Assembly (NCBI GenBank): GCA_964557735.1
Contig: CAZLAR010000002.1
Coordinates: 1 to 38,832 of the forward strand
DNA: 38,832 nt
DNA from: an uncultured Candidatus Saccharibacteria bacterium
GTDB lineage: Bacteria; Patescibacteriota; Doudnabacteria; UBA920
Direction of reading: 5' to 3'
Made by a program: the position numbers and the translations under genes. Of the stretch, positions 2,815 to 21,928 are shown piece by piece; the first letter of the stretch is position 1; the number at the start of each line of letters is the position of its first letter. A model generated the notes under the pieces. It saw only the letters and a program-made list of their open reading frames with translations. It ran no database searches and was not told where the DNA came from.

Positions 2815-4140
2815 ATGAAAAAATTCTTTGCAAAAAATCAGTTTGGAAAATTTAGTAAGTTCGCGGTGCTTTTAGTTATCGCGATTTTACCTTTATTGGC
2901 GGTGGCTTGTGGCGGCGGCGGTAATACTCAGTCATCCGGTCCAGTGACTATTAAAATTTGGAAGCCATTTGTGGATTCAGATAAAATGCAGGCGATTATG
3001 TCGGCGTATCAGGCTAAGCACACTAACGTTACTTTTGAATATACTAAAAAAAATATTGAGAATTACGAAGCCGACCTACTGAATGCTTTGGCAGCTGGGA
3101 ATGGCCCGGACATCTACTCTATAAATAACACATGGGTGCCACGCTATATGGACAAAATAGTGGAAGCCCCAGAGAAAACTTTTACCGTTAAAGACTACAA
3201 GAGCACTTTTGTAGATTCCATGGCGACCGACTTAATTAAAGATAACAAAATCTACGGTACAGCCATGTGGGTCGATTCTTTAGCGCTCTACTATAATAAA
3301 GACCTAATGGGCACAGCAGGAATTGCGGTCCCTCCAAAAACTTGGGCGCAACTTGCAGAAGATGTTAGAGAGATTTCCCGCCAAGATAGTAGTGGCTACT
3401 TTAGCCGTAGTGGGGTAGCGATGGGTACAAACACAAACGTTAATCGTGGTGTCGATATTGTTTACTTACTAATGTTACAAGCAGGCGTAGTTCCGTGGAC
3501 AGCTGATGGTCGTGCACCACAATTTGCCAACAGTATTTCTAAGAATAACAACTCAGTGAATGCTGGTGTGGAAGCCGTAGATTTTTATACTTCATTTGCT
3601 AATCCAACTAGCGCAAACTATACATGGAATGAAGACAGTGACTATTCTACCGACGCGTTTGCTAACGGCCGCGCGGCGTATCTTTATGGCTATGCTTACA
3701 CACGGGGCCAAATAGACGCCAAGGCTCCAAATTTAAATTATGATGTCGCTCCCGTACCACAAAATAATTTGGACGATCCAACTGTAAACTACTCAAGTTA
3801 CTTTGCCGAAGTAGTGAGCAAACAAAGTAAACAATCAGCGTGGGCGTGGGACTTCTTGAAGTTCGCCACCAGCAAGGACATGCTAGACATTTATTACAAA
3901 CAAGATAAGCAGCCGTCTTCGAGGCGCGACTTAATTGAATTACAAACTAGTGATCCAGACATGGGCGTGTTCGCACACGCAAACTTAACTGGTAAAACTT
4001 TTTACAAAGCAGATGAAGCCAAGTTCGACGCGATTATTGGTGAGATGATAGATAATATTAATTTACGTGGTCAACCAGTAGACCAAGCATTGGGCAGAGC
4101 GCAATCGCAGGCCAGTACGCTATCGCTGTTGCGAAATTAG
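2815..4140 (+). CDS. ABC-transporter family-1 (sugar-type) solute-binding lipoprotein, with no permease or ATPase in the window
   Basis: 441 aa. Signal peptide carries the lipobox LLAVAC followed by GGGG. The overall pattern is that of an extracellular solute-binding protein. Confidence 0.8.
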   Translation: MKKFFAKNQFGKFSKFAVLLVIAILPLLAVACGGGGNTQSSGPVTIKIWKPFVDSDKMQAIMSAYQAKHTNVTFEYTKKNIENYEADLLNALAAGNGPDIYSINNTWVPRYMDKIVEAPEKTFTVKDYKSTFVDSMATDLIKDNKIYGTAMWVDSLALYYNKDLMGTAGIAVPPKTWAQLAEDVREISRQDSSGYFSRSGVAMGTNTNVNRGVDIVYLLMLQAGVVPWTADGRAPQFANSISKNNNSVNAGVEAVDFYTSFANPTSANYTWNEDSDYSTDAFANGRAAYLYGYAYTRGQIDAKAPNLNYDVAPVPQNNLDDPTVNYSSYFAEVVSKQSKQSAWAWDFLKFATSKDMLDIYYKQDKQPSSRRDLIELQTSDPDMGVFAHANLTGKTFYKADEAKFDAIIGEMIDNINLRGQPVDQALGRAQSQASTLSLLRN

Positions 4141-4174: not shown

Positions 4175-4777
4175 ATGACAAACAAAACTAAGAAAATTTT
4201 TGGTGCAATTGTTGGGATGGTTTTGGTTGTCACTGCTTTTTTGGCTGTTTCTGATTCGGTAAATTTAATTCCAGAAGTATTTGCTCAAACTACTACTACC
4301 ACAGAAAAAGGCGATGCCGGTGGTTTTGTTCCCTGTGGTAATACTGCTGGTAACCCTTGTGAAATTGATCACTTATTTTCTACTTTCGTTGTAATTGTTA
4401 ATTACTTAATTGCTATGGCCGGGTTCTTTGCGATGGTAGCAATTGTTTTTGCTGGCTTCATGATGGTTTACTCTCAAGGTCAAGAGCAACTTAAGGCGGC
4501 TAAGGGTAGATTGTCTGGAGCGGTAATTGGTTTAGTGCTAGTAGCTGCTGCTTTTGTGTTGATTAACGCGCTCTTTGCAGGCAGTTTAAGTATCGGCGTC
4601 AGAGAAGGACCCGGAATTCTCTCTAGTCCGCTAGATTATATTCGTAATACCCCGAGTTCAAGCACTGAAGCTACTCCTTCTACTACCAATCCAAATACTA
4701 ACAGTACGACGAAACCAAATACAAATTCAAATACTGCTCCGCCAAAGACTCCAACTAAACCAACCACCGGAAAATAA
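4175..4777 (+). CDS. VirB2/TrbC-like (T4SS-pilin-like) membrane protein, paralog 1, with an S/T/P/N-rich C-terminal tail
   Basis: Signal peptide ends at FAQT. Ectodomain has a Cys-x7-Cys loop. Two TM helices flank FAGFMMVYSQGQEQLKAAKGR. Confidence 0.7.
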   Translation: MTNKTKKIFGAIVGMVLVVTAFLAVSDSVNLIPEVFAQTTTTTEKGDAGGFVPCGNTAGNPCEIDHLFSTFVVIVNYLIAMAGFFAMVAIVFAGFMMVYSQGQEQLKAAKGRLSGAVIGLVLVAAAFVLINALFAGSLSIGVREGPGILSSPLDYIRNTPSSSTEATPSTTNPNTNSTTKPNTNSNTAPPKTPTKPTTGK

Positions 4778-4778
4778 T

Positions 4779-5585
4779 ATGTTTAATAGTTTTACTAAAT
4801 TTACAATAACTAAAATTTTAGGAGCAAGCCTTTTGTTTTTAATGTTTGTTGGTAACCTTGTGGTTGTAAATCAAGCTCAAGCGGTTTCTTGTGATTGGGT
4901 GCCATATATTTTAGATAATAGTCTTCGCGAAGAGTTGCCAATGAGAGAGTATGGTGGTGGTAATGCATTTGTATTTAAGGTTTCAGAAGCAGAGAAGGCT
5001 AGTTTAAGCCTTGGGGTGGGTGGAAAAGATTGTAAGGATCAGCAGTTCACTGTCACATATACTGTTAGCACAGGTGGGGCAGAAGGCAAGAGAATTAAAT
5101 TGGTAATGGGGCCTGACAAACCACCGCTCGCTCAAAATGTTATTGTTGGCTTTGTTACTACCCAAAAACTTCCTGTGCCTAAAACCCCTTCAGTTTATAA
5201 GTACTACATTAAAGCCGGTGAAGATACAGAAAGATCAATCCAGGTGGTATATGTGGAAGGAGATTTACCTCCAGTTGTGAAGAATCAAGCCAGTACCGAT
5301 CCTACAAAAAGAGAGCCAGTAGAAATTGCACAAATTACTAACCCATTTGGTCCCAGTGCCACGACCGCGCAAGGTGTAGCGACTCGAGTGATTAATGTAT
5401 TGTTAGCGCTAATTGTTATTGCTGCTGTAATAGTAATAGTGATTTCGGGTTTCCGCATGGTTGTTGGTGGTAGTAACCCAGATCAGTTAAAAAAAGCGAA
5501 GGCTGGCATTCTTTGGTCGCTAGTAGGCTTGGCAGTGGCCTTTATGTCATTCGCAATCGTACAAATTATTCAAGGTTTATTGTAA
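4779..5585 (+). CDS. VirB2/TrbC-like membrane protein, paralog 2
   Basis: Signal peptide ends at AQAV. The ~170-aa ectodomain has 2 Cys. C-terminal module is ISGFRMVVGGSNPDQLKKAKAGILWSLVGLAV. Confidence 0.7.
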   Translation: MFNSFTKFTITKILGASLLFLMFVGNLVVVNQAQAVSCDWVPYILDNSLREELPMREYGGGNAFVFKVSEAEKASLSLGVGGKDCKDQQFTVTYTVSTGGAEGKRIKLVMGPDKPPLAQNVIVGFVTTQKLPVPKTPSVYKYYIKAGEDTERSIQVVYVEGDLPPVVKNQASTDPTKREPVEIAQITNPFGPSATTAQGVATRVINVLLALIVIAAVIVIVISGFRMVVGGSNPDQLKKAKAGILWSLVGLAVAFMSFAIVQIIQGLL

Positions 5586-5595
5586 AGTAACTCTC

Positions 5596-6543
5596 ATGAA
5601 AAAATTCCTCCTAATTATATTAATATTTACCTTGGTCACACCATTCGCATCGGCATTTGTTTCTCCTAAATTAGCCCAAGCTAATATAAATAACTGTGTG
5701 GTAAAGCTGGACTTATTAACTGCTAGTGATAAATTAATTGCCCCAGGCTCCACTATATTAGCTAATGTCGATACCCCATTTAGGTTAAGAGTGACCATTG
5801 AGATTAACCCCACTGGCGGAGCTGGTGAGTGTTACCCAGACCTGAAGTATGTGGTTAATGCCAATCGTACTTCCACCATTACTGATCCGAACGAGCCTAA
5901 TAGCTCAGAGTTTATAGGAGAAGTTGATTCTGCAGGATTATTTGCCTCAAATTTCCAAAACAACAGATTTTCAAAAATAACTCAATTAGGTGGAGGTACT
6001 CCACCTAGTGCTGGCGTTCCTGATTATGATTATTCCTATGCTATTATCTATCAGTATAAGAACGATGCTGGGGGAGCAACTCGGAGAACAAAAAGTATTC
6101 ATGTTGCGTTTACTAATAAAAAAGGTGCAGTGACTACCCCAGGGGGAACTGGCTCAGGTGGCCAAAATCCCTCCACTAACAGCAATACAAACACAGCGAC
6201 ACAAAACAATTCTACTCCAAACGCGCAAATCAACACCGGTGTTACCGCAACGTATAAGGCAGATTTAGACACGCCACTTGGCTTCTTCATCAATCCTCTT
6301 ACCAAAGACACGTTGCCAGAACTGTTGGCATCGATTTTAAAGATTCTGTTCATTTTAATTGGAATGATTTCGGTGATCATAATTATTATCGCTGGGTTCC
6401 GAATGGTTATTGCGTCGGGTAACGAGACTGAATTGACTAAAGCCAAAGCTGCCATTACCTGGGCGATCATCGGGTTAATTGTCTCGTTAATGTCGTTTAG
6501 TATTGTGGCAATTATTCAGCGACTCATTCAAGTAGGTGCTTAA
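5596..6543 (+). CDS. VirB2/TrbC-like membrane protein, paralog 3
   Basis: Signal peptide, then a ~220-aa ectodomain with 2 Cys and an N/T-rich linker. C-terminal module is IAGFRMVIASGNETELTKAKAAITWAIIGLIV. Confidence 0.7.
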   Translation: MKKFLLIILIFTLVTPFASAFVSPKLAQANINNCVVKLDLLTASDKLIAPGSTILANVDTPFRLRVTIEINPTGGAGECYPDLKYVVNANRTSTITDPNEPNSSEFIGEVDSAGLFASNFQNNRFSKITQLGGGTPPSAGVPDYDYSYAIIYQYKNDAGGATRRTKSIHVAFTNKKGAVTTPGGTGSGGQNPSTNSNTNTATQNNSTPNAQINTGVTATYKADLDTPLGFFINPLTKDTLPELLASILKILFILIGMISVIIIIIAGFRMVIASGNETELTKAKAAITWAIIGLIVSLMSFSIVAIIQRLIQVGA

Positions 6544-6556
6544 CAAAAAACATAAA

Positions 6557-7027
6557 ATGATAAAAACTTTTTCAAAAATTGTTGTAGGAGTTAGTGTTGC
6601 AATGTTCGCGGCGATGTTGTTGGTGTTACCGTTCGTAATAAACACAGTAGACGCGCAAACCAAATCACCGACTAACTCTTCTACAAAGACAACCACTCCA
6701 ACCCCGACTCAAATTTGCGATGACTTAAAAGCACAACTGGGCAGAGGTGGCTTTGAGTGGGACAAGGAAAAACTCCCAGAATACTGTACAACCAACACTC
6801 TCTATAACAAAATCATCAAAGGTGCTTTGTATGCCGTTGGTATTGTGGCAGTAATCGTTATTATTTACGGTGGCTATATCTACATGACTGCTGCTGGTAA
6901 CGACGAACAACGTAAAAGAGGCCGCACCATCCTGACGTGGGCCGTCGTGGGTCTAATAGTAGTAATTCTAGCCGTTGTCTTAGTTAATATCGCGGTTAAG
7001 CTCCTTGTTGAAAAGTCGGTTGTGTAA
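6557..7027 (+). CDS. VirB2/TrbC-like membrane protein, paralog 4
   Basis: ATG 6557 (MIKTFSK...) is preferred over GTG 6536, which overlaps paralog 3. Signal peptide ends at DAQT. C-terminal module is YGGYIYMTAAGNDEQRKRGRTILTWAVVGLIV. Confidence 0.7.
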   Translation: MIKTFSKIVVGVSVAMFAAMLLVLPFVINTVDAQTKSPTNSSTKTTTPTPTQICDDLKAQLGRGGFEWDKEKLPEYCTTNTLYNKIIKGALYAVGIVAVIVIIYGGYIYMTAAGNDEQRKRGRTILTWAVVGLIVVILAVVLVNIAVKLLVEKSVV

Positions 7028-7085
7028 TTCCCTGTATATAGTAGAATATAAGTACGTTACTTTATCTTAAAGAATCTGTTAGGAG

Positions 7086-7114
7086 TTCGCTCAGTGTTAG
7101 CCAGCGAATTTTTT
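7086..7114 (+). terminator. Intrinsic terminator after paralogs 1-4
   Basis: TTCGCT (7086-7091) pairs with AGCGAA (7103-7108) and is followed by T6. Confidence 0.6.
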
Positions 7115-7137
7115 ACAGCTTCATCCTCTTCCGAAAG

Positions 7138-7572
7138 GTGGTGAAAAAATTGAAACAAACGTTGCAAAAACTTAATTGGTTAAATATTGCTCAGTTCGTA
7201 GTTATGTTGATGGTAGTCTTGGCTCCTGTCTATGTTCCTATGACTGCTCAAGCTGGTTTAGTAGATACATTCGTAAACAACTGTCCTGCCGACACCGGCG
7301 TGCGTTGTTCTGAAGGAAGCATTGCTTCTATCTTCCGCTTGATCATTAACTGGGCATTGGCAATCGCTTTTATCGCTGCTGTTATCATGTTAATTTACGG
7401 TGGTTTCCTTTACATCACGTCAGCAGGAAACACTGAAAATGCTACTAAAGGTAAGACAGCTATTACCAACGCTCTAGTTGGTGTCGTAATCATTGTCCTT
7501 TCTTACATTATTGTTCAAATCGTGTACAGATTCGTTTCTGGTTCCGGTTCAGGTGGTATTACTGGTCCATAA
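7138..7572 (+). CDS. VirB2/TrbC-like membrane protein, paralog 5
   Basis: The start is ambiguous (GTG 7138, GTG 7141 or TTG 7150). Signal peptide ends at AQAG. Ectodomain has a Cys-x7-Cys loop. C-terminal module is YGGFLYITSAGNTENATKGKTAITNALVGVVI. Confidence 0.7.
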   Translation: MVKKLKQTLQKLNWLNIAQFVVMLMVVLAPVYVPMTAQAGLVDTFVNNCPADTGVRCSEGSIASIFRLIINWALAIAFIAAVIMLIYGGFLYITSAGNTENATKGKTAITNALVGVVIIVLSYIIVQIVYRFVSGSGSGGITGP

Positions 7573-7688
7573 TTGTTTTCCCGCATTAGAGACTTTACAA
7601 TGCGGGATAGCTCTGGGAACAAAACAAAATATTTGTGCAAAGATTTTGTTTCCGGAGTTGTAAAGACAGTTTTAATAAACTTAAAAAG

Positions 7689-8126
7689 ATGAAACAAAAA
7701 ATTACTTTAAAAATACTTGGGGGATTAGTGGCATTGATGGCCGTGTTCTTTTTCGTCCCAAACTTTTCACCGGTGCAGGCTCAGGGAACTACTAGCCCCG
7801 GAGTTACAGCTTGTCCTCCTAACTCTCCTAATTGTGCTCAAGAGGGCTTGAATGCTATTGGCTCGGCTTTTCCCGGCGGAGTAAAGCAAAACTACAGCAT
7901 CAGAGATATTGCGAGAACAGTAATTGAATGGGCATTATACTTAGCAGCGATTATTGCAGTAATCTTTATTATCATCGGTGGCTTTATGTATATCACTTCT
8001 GCTGGTAATGAAGGTCAAGCAGGTAAAGGGCGTACTACTTTAGTCAACGCTTTAATAGGTTTGGCTATTATTATTCTTTCTTACCTAATAGTCCAAGTAG
8101 TTTACAACTTCTTGGTACAAAGATAG
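7689..8126 (+). CDS. VirB2/TrbC-like membrane protein, paralog 6
   Basis: ATG 7689 (MKQKITLK...) is preferred over the track start at 7635. Signal peptide ends at AQGT. Ectodomain has a Cys-x6-Cys loop. C-terminal module is IGGFMYITSAGNEGQAGKGRTTLVNALIGLAI. Confidence 0.7.
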   Translation: MKQKITLKILGGLVALMAVFFFVPNFSPVQAQGTTSPGVTACPPNSPNCAQEGLNAIGSAFPGGVKQNYSIRDIARTVIEWALYLAAIIAVIFIIIGGFMYITSAGNEGQAGKGRTTLVNALIGLAIIILSYLIVQVVYNFLVQR

Positions 8127-8138
8127 GGCTTTCGCTAT

Positions 8139-9011
8139 TTGGAACCCCAACAAATTAAAACTTCAGTGAATATTTCGTACTCAAAAATTTTAACTAAATT
8201 TTCCCTCGCCATGCTCGCTTTGTTTAGCATGGCGTTGTTTGTTGTTCCAGCACCGAAAGAGGCTGAGGCTCAGTCAGGTGCTACTAGAAACACTATCGTT
8301 GTTTGTTTTAATGGTGCTGGTGGCGCAGTTACATTCACTGATAGTATTGCGAACTGCCCAACTGGGACTTATAAGCAGGCTTTAGTCTATCAAAGAGCAG
8401 AAGCTGGTGTATGTGTTTATAAAACCAACAATCCTGATCCTGAAGAACCTACGCATGTTATTAAGGGACCGGGAACATCCAAATATTCTGTTGACGATAA
8501 AGGAAATCGGATAGATAAAGTTTGTAAATCTGATACTGGTACCACGACAGGTACCTTTACGTCGTTCCCTCCTGTAACTACTATAACTCCAATTAACCCT
8601 GGCCCGGGCACTGGCACAAACCCAAACACTAAGCCCCCGGTTACACCCGGTGGCACAATAACTCCAGGTGGCTCATCAACTCCAGACGTCCCCTGTGGCG
8701 ACTCAGATGGCTTCCGCAAATTGGGCCCACTGTGTGTACCTAACAATCCATTTAGCAAAGACTCCATTGCTGGCGGAGACTTAACCGCGACTAGTCTGGC
8801 AATCCGCATTATCCGCATTTTGCTGTACTTCGCTGCCATAGTTTCAGTAATTATGATCATTATTGGTGGTTACTACGTAATGACTGCTCAAGGGAATGAA
8901 TCGCAGGCATCCACAGGCAAGAAGACTTTAATTAACGCCCTGATTGGTTTAGGAATTACCATTCTGGCTTACTTAATTGTGCAGGTGGTTGTTAATTTCA
9001 TCACTAAATAG
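8139..9011 (+). CDS. VirB2/TrbC-like membrane protein, paralog 7
   Basis: The start is uncertain (TTG 8139 or GTG 8166). Signal peptide ends at AEAQS. The ~190-aa ectodomain has 6 Cys and a G/T/P-rich linker. C-terminal module is IGGYYVMTAQGNESQASTGKKTLINALIGLGI. Confidence 0.7.
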   Translation: MEPQQIKTSVNISYSKILTKFSLAMLALFSMALFVVPAPKEAEAQSGATRNTIVVCFNGAGGAVTFTDSIANCPTGTYKQALVYQRAEAGVCVYKTNNPDPEEPTHVIKGPGTSKYSVDDKGNRIDKVCKSDTGTTTGTFTSFPPVTTITPINPGPGTGTNPNTKPPVTPGGTITPGGSSTPDVPCGDSDGFRKLGPLCVPNNPFSKDSIAGGDLTATSLAIRIIRILLYFAAIVSVIMIIIGGYYVMTAQGNESQASTGKKTLINALIGLGITILAYLIVQVVVNFITK

Positions 9012-9060
9012 CAAGCAAAGAGCGCGCTTCACAAGTGCTAAAATATATCGTATAATAAGT

Positions 9061-9084
9061 AACCAGGTTAGCCTGGTTATTTTT
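9061..9084 (+). terminator. Intrinsic terminator closing the pilin-like array
   Basis: AACCAGG, loop TTAG, CCTGGTT, followed by ATTTTT. Confidence 0.75.
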
Positions 9085-9120: not shown

Positions 9121-9207
9121 GCCGGAGTGGCGAAATTGGCAGACGCACCAGCCTTAGGAGCTGGCGGGGGCAACCCTGTGGAGGTTCAAGTCCTCTCTCC
9201 GGCACCA
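9121..9207 (+). tRNA. tRNA-Leu (anticodon UAG), CCA encoded
   Basis: Cloverleaf folded by hand. Acceptor GCCGGAG/CTCCGGC; anticodon arm CCAGC-CTTAGGA-GCTGG; long variable arm; T-arm with TTCAAGT loop. Confidence 0.92.
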
Positions 9208-17220: not shown

Positions 17221-17337
17221 AAACTGATTTAGCTAGTCTAAATCCGTTATTTATGTTAAGTTAGTGATAGATGAATGCAGGCAGATATACTGTCATGCAA
17301 TCTAAGTATTCCTTTCAAAGACTGTAGGAGGTTAATA

Positions 17338-18801
17338 ATGAAAAGGTTAATTACTTTAGTTGTTTGTTTTGTCTTAATGTCGCAACTGGCATTTGGACAA
17401 CGAAACGCGAGCGTAAAATCTCGCCTGGATTTAACTCAGACCTACAACGCTGTTGGTCTGATTCGGAAGGTGATTGCTGAGAACGAAGGTTTCTCGGCTA
17501 GCACCGAAACTTTTATGTTTGAAGATCAGACTGGGCGAATGGTTCCTGTTCAGGGAAAATTCGACTTCGACCTGTACTTGAACAAGAAGGTTCAAATTCG
17601 CGGCCGGCTTGGCAGCGATGTGAAGGTTAGTTCGTTGGTTCCTTTGGAAAGAATCGAGGAGCGACGAGTACCGAAACCGCAGAATTTCCCAGCAGGCGTA
17701 ACTGAGTATGATCTTTCTACAAAGGAAGGTCATCAGAAGCTTTCGGCTGCTGCAGAAAACGACGCGATCATTTTGCCTCAGCCAACGGTCGGGGATCGGC
17801 TGACTTATGCAGTTTGTGTAGGTTTCCTTGATCTTCCAGATTGTCCTTTGACTCAGTCAGAATTGGATATTCGAATGTATTCTGGCGGAACATCGGTTCG
17901 AGGTGCATATTTGGAATCGTCTCATGGAAAGTTTAGGTTAAATGGTCAAGCTCATCCTAGGATTTCGATTAATTTGACCAGTGCAAATTGTGTTAATAAT
18001 ATGTTTGGGTCTTGGACACAAGCAGTTATGGCCCAAATTCCTTCTGAGATATTGCAGGAGAGTAACAATTTTGTATTTTTTACTCCTCCTATCCCTGGGT
18101 GTTCTTGGGGGGCGATTTCCACTGGTGGCAACAAAGGACAGAACTCAGTTGACCAAATAGCTTGGATTCAGCTCTCGGCTTTAATGGTAAGCAATTTGAA
18201 CGAGTTTATCAGCACCGCTACTCATGAGGTTGGTCATCAACTTGGACTGCAGCACGCCGACGGGGTTAGTCTTTCTGGTGTTGTATGCGGAGGATGTGAT
18301 CGAGCAGATTTTATGGCAGCGAGGTTACGCTACCCTAACTCCTATCATCGGTTGGCGTTAGGCTGGTTAGTAGGGAAAGTTGTCATTGTAAATGGACCTG
18401 GCGACAATTCATTCACTTTAAGATCTCCTGGGGTTGTATCTGGAAAATCGGCAATCAGAACGGTGCTTATGCCTCGATATGATTCCAATGGTATCCCAAC
18501 TGGAGACATGAAAATCATTGAGAATCGTGCGGACCTTAATTTTTACGAATTTTTTGGGGCTCAATTTATGGCTTACAAACTTGGGATCTCTATTCGCAAG
18601 TCGCCTACTGATTTGAGCCTTACTTCTGGGAAGTCATATTTATATCACATGAACGTGGCTAACCCAGTGGACTACGACACCGCTCCACTTACTGTCGGCA
18701 ATCAATTTGTAGATAATAGTGATGGCGTTACTATCGAAGCCCAATCTTTCTCCATCGCCGGAGGGGCACGGGTAAGGGTTATCACAAACCGCGGACCGTA
18801 G
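17338..18801 (+). CDS. Secreted zinc metalloprotease, metzincin-type
   Basis: HEVGHQLGLQH matches HExxHxxGxxH. Signal peptide is MKRLITLVVCFVLMSQLAFGQ. ATG 17338 has a strong SD (GTAGGAGGTTAATAATG), so the track start at 17275 is probably too long. Confidence 0.8.
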   Translation: MKRLITLVVCFVLMSQLAFGQRNASVKSRLDLTQTYNAVGLIRKVIAENEGFSASTETFMFEDQTGRMVPVQGKFDFDLYLNKKVQIRGRLGSDVKVSSLVPLERIEERRVPKPQNFPAGVTEYDLSTKEGHQKLSAAAENDAIILPQPTVGDRLTYAVCVGFLDLPDCPLTQSELDIRMYSGGTSVRGAYLESSHGKFRLNGQAHPRISINLTSANCVNNMFGSWTQAVMAQIPSEILQESNNFVFFTPPIPGCSWGAISTGGNKGQNSVDQIAWIQLSALMVSNLNEFISTATHEVGHQLGLQHADGVSLSGVVCGGCDRADFMAARLRYPNSYHRLALGWLVGKVVIVNGPGDNSFTLRSPGVVSGKSAIRTVLMPRYDSNGIPTGDMKIIENRADLNFYEFFGAQFMAYKLGISIRKSPTDLSLTSGKSYLYHMNVANPVDYDTAPLTVGNQFVDNSDGVTIEAQSFSIAGGARVRVITNRGP

Positions 18802-18832
18802 GAAATTTACAACTTCCTACAGTCAAACATTA

Positions 18833-18859
18833 CAGCAATCCACAAGGTTGCTGTTTTTT
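18833..18859 (+). terminator. Intrinsic terminator after the metalloprotease gene
   Basis: CAGCAA pairs with TTGCTG across a 9-nt loop, followed by T6. Confidence 0.65.
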
Positions 18860-18860
18860 C

Positions 18861-18889
18861 TTGCATAATTTTCTTATCTATGCTATAAT
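18861..18889 (+). promoter_or_regulatory. Sigma70-like promoter (TTGCAT-17-TATAAT)
   Basis: -35 at 18861-18866 and -10 at 18884-18889, upstream of 18924. Confidence 0.6.
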
Positions 18890-18923
18890 TCTAGTAATAA
18901 AAAGCATTGTAAAGAAATAAAAA

Positions 18924-19409
18924 ATGGAAAATTTAATAAAGAACAAAGTTGGTTTACTTTTGGTTTTGGCGGTTTTGCTATTGTTGGTAGCAGGCCTTTT
19001 TTTATACCTTCAACCTGAAGGCGTAAATACATTAACTGGCAAAAGGGATGTTGCCGAAAAAGACTTTAAATTAGAGACAAAAGACACTCCTAGCTCAGCT
19101 ATTTTAGTGGGCTTTCCTAAAGACTTACCAATGGAGGCTGGTAGTAAGGTTCTCCAAAGCTACGAGTCCGACAGTGGTAATGGCCGATTACAGTCTACTA
19201 AGAAATTCACTACAACTCTTAGTGTCTCAGCGGCCCTAGAAAAATATACTTCCTTCTTTAAGGACACTGGTTGGTTGCAAACAGATTCAGATGTGAAGAC
19301 TTCACCAATTACGTTGATCCAAAAAAATGATACCGTCATGATTGTAGCTACTGATGATCCAGACAATGGAACAATTGTAGAAATTACCATTCTTCAAAAT
19401 CAAAACTAA
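18924..19409 (+). CDS. N-terminally anchored secreted protein, paralog B of 16670..17164
   Basis: 161 aa with the same architecture and motif pattern as paralog A. Its TAA stop overlaps the next ATG (TAATG at 19407-19411). Confidence 0.65.
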   Translation: MENLIKNKVGLLLVLAVLLLLVAGLFLYLQPEGVNTLTGKRDVAEKDFKLETKDTPSSAILVGFPKDLPMEAGSKVLQSYESDSGNGRLQSTKKFTTTLSVSAALEKYTSFFKDTGWLQTDSDVKTSPITLIQKNDTVMIVATDDPDNGTIVEITILQNQN

Positions 19410-21928
19410 TGTCTATATTAAACATGAAAAATATTTATAGAATTGTACTAGCTACTTTATTAGTTAGTCTTTTTCCTTTGTCTCCCAAATTAGTTAAAGC
19501 CGAAGCTCTTTGCTCTGGGATTAATCTTACTATTACAGTAACTAATGTCGGAACAGGCGAGGTGTTAGGTACTTATACTGACCGTGGTAGTAATGATCCA
19601 GATGGCGATAGTATGTTTACTCTTGACAATGTTCCATATAGCGCGGTATTAAGTTTCGCTTATTCTAGTAATGGAACCCCCTCATATACCCAAGATACAT
19701 ATTATTCATCAGGGGCTTACGAATATTCTTCGGGGCCAAGGGAAATGGAAGATGTAGTATATACAGCTCCACCAATTATTGAGCCAGCCATGTTTATTGG
19801 TGGTAGGACCGAAAATATTTGTACCGCAGTCCCTGGCTATCCAGGAGACGAACGTGCTGTTGTAGTTATTAATATTTACAACTCTAGTGCTGACTATGGT
19901 TTTACTTGCGGAGTAAACCAAATTGTTACTCAAGGCCAAAATGCTAATTATGTTTTACAAGCTACTCCAGATACTGGATACACCCCAACGGTTGGCGTAA
20001 CCATGGCTAGTGATCCTGCTGGGCCAACAATGAATGGTTCCCCAGTACAATTGAACTCTGGAAATAGCTACACTAACACAGCAGTGGTACCAACTGGTAG
20101 TTTGACTCCTGGTGTGTATACGTTGACTTTTTCTTTTACCGACGGAACAACTCCTCATGATTGCCAAGCTAATTTGCAGGTTACAGGTATGGAATTGCCA
20201 ATTGTAGACTTAGATTTTAATAATTCAGATGGACCAGTAGATATTACTGATCAATCTAGTGGACTGCTTAGCTGGACTTCAGAAAACACAGATACCTGTA
20301 CAGCATCTTCAAATCCAGTTGTTCCAGGCTGGGGAGATAATAACCCCGTTACTCCACTTAACAACGCGTATCCAAGTGGTGTAACGGTCGGTCCACTTTC
20401 CGGCCCACAGACATATACTTTCACATTACAATGTTCAAATGCTGGTGGTTCAGACAGTGACTCAGTTGTAGTTAACGTCGGTAATCCACTTCCATTAGAT
20501 CCTACAGTCACCCTAGAATGCATGGGAACTATCGACACTATTCCACAAGGTGGTCCTTGCAACTTAGACTACAACACAGCTGGTACACTTACATGGAATT
20601 CAGAAAATGCCACAAGTTGTGATATGAATCCTAGTTTAGGTATTAGAACAGAACTTGATGAACTTACAGGCGTTTCCACTGGAAACCTAACAAGCAACCA
20701 ATCGTATACTATTACTTGTACTGGTGCTGTTGGCACTACTCCAGCCGTAGACACAGTTAGCTTTACTATAGACTCTAACCCTAACTTTACAATGGCTTGT
20801 AGTCCTGCCACAGTCCCTCTAAATCAAGGTGACTCAGCTTCTTACCTAGTAGAGTTAGACCCAGTTGATGGATTTTCCTCGGAAGTAACTTTGACCGGTG
20901 AAGTTTTGGATAGTTCTAAAAGTGCGCCAACTTTGTCATTCCCAACCAACACTGGAACCCCAGAAGTTGATTTTTCACCAGTAGTTAGTGCTGCTTCAGA
21001 TACTCCTGCCGGGATCTATAACATCAGATTTACAGCTGATGGTGGCGGCATTACTAAAACTTGTGATGTTGAAGTAGAAGTGGATGTGATTCCTGGTCCT
21101 GGGGAACCTCTAAAGGTTCGAGCTAGTAACATGAATTGTGGAACTATCGATATTACTTGGGGAAACCCGACCGATGGTACTCCTGAGCAGTTCTTGGTGT
21201 ACAGACGTGCTTCTGAAAGTGATGGCTGGGAATTGTTAAACAAAGTAGACTTTGACAAAGACCCTTCAGGTTATTTGGTTACTGACAGTAGCCCTCTTAA
21301 TCCGCTATCCTCAAATTACTATGCTGTTACAGCTTCGTATGGTGGCGCTGAATCTGGTTATGCGATAGCATACCCTTCACCGATTGTGCCTTTGTCTTGT
21401 ACTCCTAACTTAACTAAATCGGATAAAGACTTAGTGAAAGTCTCCGGGCAAACTAAGAAAGCATTTAATCCAGTAGCATGTTCTAGTCAATCAGACATCG
21501 CTAACTTGCCGAATAATGCTCTGTTCGCACCAAATGATAGAGTTACTTTCCGAATTAACGTTTGTAACTCAGGACCTGGAACGCTTACCGGAATTACGAT
21601 TACAGACGATTTGTCTAAGAATCTTTCCGATCCTGGTGATTATGATTCAAATTGTTTAAATGGAGCGCCAGTATATGATTCTGTTGCTCAAACTATAACA
21701 TTTGATTTACAGGAGATTGCTGCTGGTGACGTTAGCACACAATCCTGTAGTATCGAATTTACAGCCACTGTCACTGCCCCAGCGGTAACAACTGCAGCGC
21801 TATATCGATTCCAAAATATTGCTAGCATTGTTACAAATGAATTGCCTAAGTACAGAGTCTTTACGCCACCATACTTGTTTAGTGTAGCTGGAGGTGTTCC
21901 AGACCGTACTGAAACCGCTCCTCAATAA
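19409..21928 (+). CDS. Large secreted multi-domain surface protein (Ig-like repeats, FN3-like segment, DUF11-like C-terminal segment)
   Basis: 839 aa with a signal peptide. Contains two pairs of Cys-bracketed repeat modules. One segment is FN3-like (LKVRASNMNCGTIDITWGNPTDG...FLVYRR). A C-terminal segment (RVTFRINVCNSGPGTLTGITITDDL) resembles the conserved-repeat/DUF11 fold. Confidence 0.7.
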   Translation: MSILNMKNIYRIVLATLLVSLFPLSPKLVKAEALCSGINLTITVTNVGTGEVLGTYTDRGSNDPDGDSMFTLDNVPYSAVLSFAYSSNGTPSYTQDTYYSSGAYEYSSGPREMEDVVYTAPPIIEPAMFIGGRTENICTAVPGYPGDERAVVVINIYNSSADYGFTCGVNQIVTQGQNANYVLQATPDTGYTPTVGVTMASDPAGPTMNGSPVQLNSGNSYTNTAVVPTGSLTPGVYTLTFSFTDGTTPHDCQANLQVTGMELPIVDLDFNNSDGPVDITDQSSGLLSWTSENTDTCTASSNPVVPGWGDNNPVTPLNNAYPSGVTVGPLSGPQTYTFTLQCSNAGGSDSDSVVVNVGNPLPLDPTVTLECMGTIDTIPQGGPCNLDYNTAGTLTWNSENATSCDMNPSLGIRTELDELTGVSTGNLTSNQSYTITCTGAVGTTPAVDTVSFTIDSNPNFTMACSPATVPLNQGDSASYLVELDPVDGFSSEVTLTGEVLDSSKSAPTLSFPTNTGTPEVDFSPVVSAASDTPAGIYNIRFTADGGGITKTCDVEVEVDVIPGPGEPLKVRASNMNCGTIDITWGNPTDGTPEQFLVYRRASESDGWELLNKVDFDKDPSGYLVTDSSPLNPLSSNYYAVTASYGGAESGYAIAYPSPIVPLSCTPNLTKSDKDLVKVSGQTKKAFNPVACSSQSDIANLPNNALFAPNDRVTFRINVCNSGPGTLTGITITDDLSKNLSDPGDYDSNCLNGAPVYDSVAQTITFDLQEIAAGDVSTQSCSIEFTATVTAPAVTTAALYRFQNIASIVTNELPKYRVFTPPYLFSVAGGVPDRTETAPQ

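Follow-up and report, generated by a model that had tools for sequence, protein, structure and literature searches.

Saccharibacteria generally retain a type IV secretion system (T4SS) (McLean 2020; Wang 2023). In TM7x, an array of four to six small proteins with Sec signals lies beside VirB4 and VirB6 and was read as a set of effectors (McLean 2020). The corresponding array of S. epibionticum was re-annotated as essential pilin subunits inside the T4SS cluster (Wang 2023). More recently, 441 arrays of 2–11 VirB2-like genes were described in 383 assemblies, pilin genes were found near virB4 in 1,135 of 1,948 assemblies, and pilin variety was proposed to aid adaptation to host strains (Quiñonero-Coronel 2025). 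Both this kind of array and the idea of host adaptation are therefore already published. The question behind such arrays is what decides which hosts Saccharibacteria and other ultrasmall epibionts can use; few systems besides the T4SS and its pilins have been proven essential to epibiotic life. Here, we describe an array of seven pilin-like genes, P1 to P7, on the plus strand of a contig from an uncultured environmental Saccharibacteria (TM7) bacterium (CAZLAR010000002.1, an apparently complete contig of 38.8 kb; its 38,832 nucleotides are hereafter the window). The genes are consecutive and extend from position 4175 to 9011. The organism has been seen in the metagenomes SRR8893621 and SRR32910794. 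Compared with the known arrays, this locus is new in having ectodomains that are large and exchangeable, a conserved candidate core subunit that stands apart and is accompanied by a new RNA element, and a location remote from T4SS genes.

Like the arrays known in Patescibacteria (SEML1_0014–0019 of S. epibionticum ML1, the "Sec secreted array" of N. lyticus TM7x, and the 441 arrays of the survey), the window genes stand in tandem on one strand, match PF18895, and encode signal peptides. With seven consecutive genes, they form an array as defined by Quiñonero-Coronel (2025), that is, at least two PF18895 or PF04956 genes in tandem or one gene apart and of low identity. Identity within the published arrays is 25% on average and 54% at most (Quiñonero-Coronel 2025); among the C-terminal modules of P1–P7 it ranges from 21% to 55%, with a mean of 33% and BLASTP E-values as low as 7e-25. 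At about 103–185 amino acids (aa), the ML1 pilins are uniformly short; they are described as "structurally conserved" and are encoded inside the T4SS cluster, whereas the window array lies in a housekeeping region, after the gene of a solute-binding protein (SBP). Unlike the ML1 pilins, four of the seven window proteins carry an additional 57–204 aa, in the form of folded or orphan ectodomains on P2, P3, and P7 and of a low-complexity tail on P1. The published accounts of these arrays describe no ectodomain modularity, no cassette replacement, no conserved P5 unit, and no P5 RNA element, and the text of Quiñonero-Coronel (2025) does not mention ectodomains, signal peptides, or transmembrane helices.

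More distant systems share only parts of this organization. The classical pilins VirB2 (Agrobacterium T-pilus), TrbC (RP4), and TraA (F) have, like the window pilins, a long leader and a two-helix hairpin with a short polar loop, and VirB2 is cut between Ala and Gln, as predicted for the window pilins. They are encoded by single genes, not arrays, and bear no extra domains, whereas the window belongs to a monoderm host and offers no VirB5, VirB7, VirB9, or VirB10 context. The Ced pilin of Aeropyrum pernix (Protein Data Bank [PDB] entry 8dfu) and the NF045849 proteins of Mycoplasma integrative and conjugative elements (ICEs) are single small proteins of conjugative elements, unlike this array. 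The VirB2 arrays of Bartonella and Anaplasma resemble it in combining tandem amplification and divergence in host-dependent bacteria, but the paralogs there are of small size and their variation affects the pilin itself, whereas here the pilin module is conserved and the appended domains vary. A functional parallel is provided by FimH and PapG of chaperone-usher pili, in which a conserved polymerization or anchoring domain is joined to a variable receptor-binding domain, where allelic variation resides, beside a short and abundant major subunit. This is an analogy in working and not homology: folds and assembly are unrelated, the window has six coexisting candidates for adhesin-bearing proteins, and assembly into a fiber is only proposed.

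New here are the synteny of the SBP gene and the array with positional orthology in about 25 species, wholesale ectodomain replacement even between strains 92–96% identical, a cadherin-like domain in P2, and the exceptional character of P5. The SBP gene keeps its place immediately ahead of the pilin genes in about 40 relatives at the species level, nearly all of them labeled Saccharibacteria or Patescibacteria. Every relative with enough sequence carries six to eight pilin genes directly after it. In about 25 genomes, the pilin at a given position best matches the window pilin of the same position and, as judged by these comparisons, the seven paralogs are ancient positional orthologs in a fixed order. 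Over about 18 species, the modules are 51–67% identical, whereas the regions preceding them show 14–33% identity and large changes in length (3–200 aa for P1, 42–247 for P2, and 51–358 for P3). P5 is the most conserved member, with 58% identity before the module, 80% within it, and a near-constant length. The dN/dS ratio is 0.00–0.08 for the modules and 0.03 for the SBP, and the modules are under strong purifying selection. Positive selection was rejected: the comparison of ectodomain and module suggested in the preliminary description of this stretch, which had been made from the sequence alone, gave dN/dS values below 1 in every alignable region. In the P7 ectodomain compared with its counterpart in L001, the closely related contig described below, a raised dN is accompanied by a raised dS (0.82 against a background of ~0.25), which points to the import of a divergent allele rather than to positive selection.

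Strain-level evidence comes from L001 and from related pairs among the compared loci. L001 is 92–94% identical to the window at the DNA level, but similarity is undetectable at 5590–6165, which corresponds to the signal peptide and ectodomain of P3, and again at 8274–8527, in part of the first domain of P7. The last 110 aa of the two P3 proteins are 91% identical and their N-terminal ~205 aa are unrelated. Neither allele has lost its signal peptide or its Cys pair, and the boundary between related and unrelated sequence falls in the T/N/P-rich linker. L001 is a single-run assembly; its replaced P3 allele is an intact gene with a relative in another locus, L022, and the pattern repeats in independent pairs. 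Six of eight further genome pairs show similarity gaps within the array, one of them with 96% flank identity (L033 and L017), so that replacement at 92–96% flank identity is seen in two independent pairs. The gaps fall only before the module, at positions 1, 2, 3, and 7 and sometimes 4 and 6, and never on the modules or on P5. The remaining two pairs, at 88–90% identity (L003/L019 and L025/L026), have an array without a gap. The identity contrast between ectodomains and modules, together with this outright replacement, bears out the earlier idea of tips that vary while their scaffold is shared. No exact copy of P1 was on record, and P0001 yielded only a 1.5-kb contig.

Ectodomain families recur across positions and distant lineages with 25–35% identity. 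The P3 module of L001 is 75–91% identical to those of close relatives, and its ectodomain type is otherwise present only in the distant L022. By these similarities, modules and ectodomains have had different histories. A recent movement of ectodomains from one array position to another was considered and rejected, the cross-position similarities being old (25–35%); they indicate a limited pool of ectodomain families. At position 2 of L015 (11856–12605) and L016 (11861–12265), whose flanks are 78% identical, the whole ectodomain is present in one and absent from the other (249 vs. 134 aa). Besides being replaced, then, ectodomains also undergo loss or gain. In three further loci (L025, 13640–14908; L026, 13659–14912; L029, 13186–14079), a region is added C-terminal to the module, forming tails of 138–160 aa, each with a Cys pair. 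These tails fit a topology with both termini outside the membrane and show that either end of the hairpin can carry an ectodomain.

The shared architecture of P1–P7 largely agrees with the preliminary description, which had recognized seven same-strand open reading frames (ORFs) with signal peptides and A-Q motifs; the ORF listing of the window returns them at exactly the same coordinates (table 1). Each protein has an N-terminal hydrophobic, signal-like segment leading to an A-Q site (FAQT, AQAV, AQAN, DAQT, AQAG, AQGT, and AQS, from P1 to P7) and two strongly hydrophobic C-terminal helices (Kyte-Doolittle peaks 2.2–3.5), as called by inspection from hydropathy segments and A-Q sites. The loop joining the helices is 12–14 residues long, rich in G, N, and K/R, with invariant G/N positions. 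Downstream of the A-Q site, the proteins contain 2, 2, 2, 2, 2, 2, and 6 Cys, as first counted, and the modules none. The listed P6 ORF has 18 spurious and probably untranslated N-terminal residues, including two Cys. An even number of extracellular Cys is also found in 205 of 208 related pilins, and the six Cys of P7 are conserved in 33 orthologs. Other details had to be amended. The ectodomains span 20–204 aa instead of about 30 to 220 aa. The module ends the protein in P2–P7 as had been proposed for all, but P1 continues past it with its 57-aa T/P/N-rich tail. The ectodomains are mutually unrelated at the BLASTP level (best non-self match only E = 0.17), yet a C-x6-7-C loop immediately before the first transmembrane helix is common to P1, P5, and P6, and P7 has a C-x12-C loop there. 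Such an array is far beyond chance, and it recurs in about 25 related species.

All seven paralogs score above the PF18895 (T4SS_pilin) gathering score of 26.6 bits (27.2–46.7 bits), and the 33 P7 orthologs match this family as well, which settles the membership that had been suggested at the outset and for which this search had been proposed. The VirB2/TrbC-type topology put forward with it is upheld by PF18895 and by the hairpin models described below, and less firmly by PF04956 (TrbC/VirB2), with which the matches are consistent but sub-threshold. None reaches the gathering score of 27.9 bits; P2 comes first with 17.1 bits, and P4 and P6 score ~13 bits. The alignments keep a consistent register, covering the portion of the model with the two C-terminal helices, and 7 of the 33 P7 orthologs give E < 0.01, the best being 5.8e-5. 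Their relationship to the classical TrbC/VirB2 pilins is a distant one, and the cut-off of PF04956 itself leaves them outside that family. They also match NF045849, the NCBIfam model of the Mbov_0395 family of pilin-like conjugal transfer proteins from Mycoplasma ICEs (7 of 7, E from 1.7e-5 to 3.4e-11). P4 passes the cutoff of 40 bits with 42.7 bits, and the other six fall below it with 24.4–30.0 bits (E 1.7e-5 to 3e-7). These matches suggest that the Patescibacterial pilin may have arrived with a monoderm-type system, and they fit the published MPF-FATA ancestry of Patescibacterial VirB4. The same monoderm, MPF-FATA-type matches are awkward in view of the published statement that Gram-positive-type T4SS classes are devoid of VirB2-like pilins.

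Structure models were obtained with AlphaFold2 (AF2) for P5 and P7, with a mean predicted local distance difference test (pLDDT) score of ~71–72 in both. The P5 model, based on 55 homologs, forms a helical hairpin (61–93 and 99–134, pLDDT 82–92). Among 350,542 PDB chains, Foldseek ranked 8dfu, the conjugation pilus of A. pernix, first (TM-score on target 0.66 with a root mean square deviation of 3.6 Å, probability 0.92, E 0.81), a match that is consistent with a pilin fold rather than decisive. In P7, the two helices are modeled at 208–240 and 245–280, and the first domain as a confident small beta domain (43–133, pLDDT 83–90). A Foldseek search of the PDB with this model gave no significant match; weak matches to leukotoxin, with a TM-score of ~0.1, are meaningless.

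A Pfam scan found no domain in any ectodomain. The P2 ectodomain was compared by phmmer with 1.84 billion representative sequences, an exhaustive search that was the sole source of its cadherin link, and matched only its own ortholog and three giant multi-cadherin proteins (E 4e-19, 6e-11, and 4e-7). On this similarity, residues ~91–170 of P2 are homologous to the cadherin repeats of giant adhesins, and we call this domain cadherin-like. The P3 ectodomain had no match in a word-indexed search of 5.8 billion clusters.

P5 differs from its neighbors in several respects. It is the shortest paralog, its copy in L001 is identical, and it is flanked by intergenic regions of 110 and 116 nt. It is preceded by a Shine-Dalgarno (SD)-like motif, GAAAGGTGGTGA, which also recurs upstream of P5 orthologs. 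Assuming a canonical anti-SD sequence, the predicted duplex (−13.4 kcal/mol) is the best among 34 genes of the window (next −9.3, median about −3); the other genes, including those of ribosomal proteins, have A-rich leaders without an SD. P5 is followed by tandem RNA hairpins with a minimum free energy of −33.6 kcal/mol (z = −6.1). In an alignment of 19 species, 10 of the 26 predicted pairs show compensatory changes, and 93.9% of the alignment cells pair, as against 32–55% when partners are slid; none of 500 shuffles reached the covariation score. Over 538 kb, a covariance model detected a single element in each locus, in every case immediately behind the P5 ortholog, and held-out distant loci (L025, L026, L027, and L041) match it with E from 2.5e-5 to 1.3e-3. 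No Rfam family matches this element. Its function may be to terminate, process, or stabilize the P5 transcript. Conservation, intergenic setting, SD-like site, and RNA hairpins together suggest that P5 forms an expression unit of its own, probably an abundant one. In two relatives with eight genes (L006, 14553–14960; L008, 14470–14871), an extra P5-like copy directly follows P5, and the RNA element follows the second copy.

We consider it probable that P1–P7 are VirB2-family pilin-like subunits of a monoderm-type T4SS, with P5 as the core subunit and the other six as accessory, adhesin-displaying subunits. The T4SS machinery would be encoded elsewhere in the genome. The Sec pathway would export the precursors, with cleavage behind the Ala of the A-Q site. 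According to sequence and AF2 models, the C-terminal hairpin would remain embedded in the membrane; the two termini would lie outside and the short K/R-containing loop inside. P5 would be the abundant subunit, whose transcript is probably terminated, processed, or stabilized by the tandem RNA hairpin. In the other six, the hairpin would serve as a scaffold showing disulfide-stabilized extracellular domains, mostly N-terminal, and C-terminal in P1 and some relatives. The cadherin-like ectodomain would imply adhesion to the host-cell surface. Recombination in the low-complexity linker and in the intergenic region ahead of the gene may swap the ectodomain cassettes while the scaffold stays constant, and this exchange would tune what the epibiont binds. 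A more ambitious form of this proposal, which we advance tentatively and regard as rather doubtful, makes the VirB2-like hairpin a universal socket for exchangeable adhesin cassettes, cadherin-like or of orphan disulfide-bonded folds. A P5 filament or conduit, built by the monoderm-type T4SS, would be decorated or capped by the six paralogs; the allele set, reshuffled by recombination at the low-complexity linkers even among near-identical strains, would be the main determinant of the host bacteria to which an epibiont can attach, and the SD-like site and 3' RNA of P5 would set subunit stoichiometry.

Several observations weigh against a pilus of this type. The VirB4, VirD4, VirB6, and VirB3/PrgI domains are absent from the window ORFs of at least 100 aa over the 38.8 kb, as the preliminary description had stated for the first three, and the 10-kb upstream flanks of relatives contain FtsK, RodZ, RecA, exonuclease, and LspA genes instead of T4SS genes. 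What ties the array to a T4SS is therefore its protein family and the evidence from other species. Membership in the classical VirB2/TrbC family is below the Pfam threshold, a sequence search of the PDB with a profile of the seven modules returned no pilin but a spurious TATA-binding protein (E 0.75), and the E-value of the P5 fold match is not significant. The role of P5 as major subunit is deduced only from conservation, the SD-like site, and the RNA hairpins, and the window holds no 16S gene from which the anti-SD sequence could be read. In the literature on these arrays, a pilus made of such proteins has not been reported in any Patescibacterium. Ectodomains of 150–200 aa may not fit the tight helical packing of VirB2-type pili, and the essentiality of the small S. 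epibionticum pilin genes in transposon sequencing could partly reflect polar effects.

The chief alternative is that the proteins are T4SS-independent surface proteins, in which the hairpin has been co-opted as a mere two-helix membrane anchor that does not polymerize. The distance of the array from any T4SS gene (>10 kb upstream and >29 kb downstream), its constant association with an SBP lipoprotein gene, and the large, folded ectodomains would all suit such anchored proteins. Gram-positive-type T4SSs, moreover, are published as normally lacking pili, and pilin genes are not near virB4 in 813 of 1,948 assemblies (Quiñonero-Coronel 2025). However, in S. epibionticum and TM7x the homologous arrays form part of the T4SS cluster and are essential like the rest of it. 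The constraint on the module, with its invariant loop G/N positions and dN/dS of 0.00–0.08, exceeds what a generic anchor would need, and P5 is the most conserved member although it has almost no ectodomain. We judge this alternative unlikely, if the most serious.

The preliminary description had viewed the array as a repertoire of alternative tips, perhaps for the recognition of hosts or partners or for variation. In its strict form, this would be an antigenic or phase-variation system of seven interchangeable alternatives, expressed one or a few at a time or recombined into an expression site, which would serve to evade host defenses or to switch hosts. The extremely fast divergence of the ectodomains, their replacement between close strains, and the division of the array into sub-units by hairpins could be seen in this light. 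So could the published shift in expression of half of the TM7x array genes between infection stages and the analogy drawn with the VirB2 paralog arrays of Bartonella and Anaplasma (Quiñonero-Coronel 2025). This idea did not hold up: all seven genes are complete, each with its own signal peptide, their positional orthology is stable over long evolutionary distances, dN/dS is below 1, and P5 is invariant. Long repeats, silent cassettes, and invertible elements are absent from the array, whose only repeats are the module-coding stretches (61–78% identical), with imperfect inverted repeats of at most 22 nt. In S. epibionticum, the pilins of the array have been reported to be essential, which argues for nonredundant parts of one structure. 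We therefore regard switching as improbable. Even less credible is an array of soluble Sec-secreted effectors that would reach the host by way of the T4SS, in the manner of pertussis toxin subunits, as proposed from signal peptides and the position beside T4SS genes, with a similarity to pertussis S1 of only 11% identity (McLean 2020), and still echoed by the term "effectors" in later papers, as every member has two strongly hydrophobic C-terminal helices, a pilin model match, and a modeled membrane hairpin.

Under the pilin-like subunit reading, the published "sequence-divergent pilins" resolve into a constrained scaffold, one core subunit with translational and RNA signals, and swapped appended domains, at least one of them adhesin-like. 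A vague idea of host adaptation thereby becomes a set of testable candidates, namely the targets of the ectodomains and the effect of swaps on host range. The pilin-like relative in Mycoplasma ICEs bears on the origin of these proteins, either with a monoderm-type T4SS or borrowed from diderm systems.

The features of the locus are collected in table 1. The SBP is an orphan, with no adjacent ABC permease or ATPase genes, and may be cotranscribed with the array or functionally tied to it. Of the hairpins that had been proposed to split the array, the two followed by T-runs, between P4 and P5 and after P7, are present, the former being kept only in the closest relatives. The third proved to be only the first half of the tandem element behind P5. 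The terminator scan overlooked the hairpins at 7086 and 7580, as their loops exceed its 8-nt limit; both were confirmed by sequence reading and folding. A promoter scan was uninformative, with 10 sites against 11 expected by chance.

Table 1. Features of the pilin-like gene array and its immediate surroundings in the window
Feature	Position	Strand	Description	Supporting data
SBP_bac_1 solute-binding protein	2815..4140	+	Orphan, probable lipoprotein, sugar-type; 34-nt gap to P1	Pfam PF01547 E 1.1e-25
P1, pilin-like	4175..4777	+	Signal peptide (…EVFA/QT); 26-aa ectodomain with C-x7-C loop; two-helix module; 57-aa T/P/N-rich C-terminal tail	PF18895 31.2 bits; NF045849 E 7.8e-6
P2, pilin-like	4779..5585	+	156-aa ectodomain with 2 Cys; cadherin-like domain at aa ~91–170	PF18895 27.2 bits; PF04956 E 0.0063
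P3, pilin-like	5596..6543	+	204-aa orphan ectodomain (2 Cys); T/N/S/G-rich linker; module	PF18895 39.7 bits
P4, pilin-like	6536..7027, likely start ATG 6557	+	45-aa ectodomain with C-x22-C pair	PF18895 46.7 bits; NF045849 42.7 bits (cutoff 40)
Terminator-like hairpin between P4 and P5	7086..7114	+	TTCGCT…AGCGAA, then T6	Read in sequence; RNAfold −15.6 kcal/mol for 7076–7118
SD-like motif	7133..7144	+	GAAAGGTGGTGA, 5 nt before in-frame TTG 7150, ahead of P5	
P5, short, highly conserved, pilin-like	7138..7572	+	20-aa ectodomain (C-x7-C); candidate core/major subunit	PF18895 40.4 bits
Tandem RNA hairpins 3' of P5	7580..7661	+	A, 7580–7606 (CCCGCAUU…AAUGCGGG); B, 7607–7661, stem ~19 bp	
P6, pilin-like	7635..8126, likely start ATG 7689	+	36-aa ectodomain with C-x6-C loop	PF18895 36.3 bits; NF045849 E 3e-7
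P7, pilin-like	8139..9011, likely start GTG 8166	+	4-Cys beta-rich N-terminal domain; low-complexity linker; conserved C-x12-C loop (GF.K.GPLCVPN.PF); module	PF18895 27.3 bits
Hairpin, likely array terminator	9060..9084	+	TAACCAGG-TTAG-CCTGGTTA, then TTTTT; before tRNA-Leu (9121–9207)	

The remainder of the window has a housekeeping character. It encodes ComM, a nucleotidyltransferase, the SBP, the array, tRNA-Leu, FtsH, RNase III, SMC, S16, KhpA, TrmD, RluD, L19, superoxide dismutase (SOD), a peroxiredoxin, RNase Y, YmdB, NusA, and ClpP. A cluster of unannotated, probably surface proteins is located at 17275–21928. It includes a 508-aa protein with a weak match to M11 peptidases (17275–18801) and an 839-aa protein with a DUF11/isopeptide-fimbrial-like domain (19409–21928). 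At the right end of the contig, a G/T/N-rich ORF of at least 1,300 codons on the plus strand (34932–38831) runs off the sequence; it has no Pfam domain and may encode a giant surface protein. The segment at 34–35 kb that precedes it has an unusually low GC content (0.34) and contains short ORFs only.

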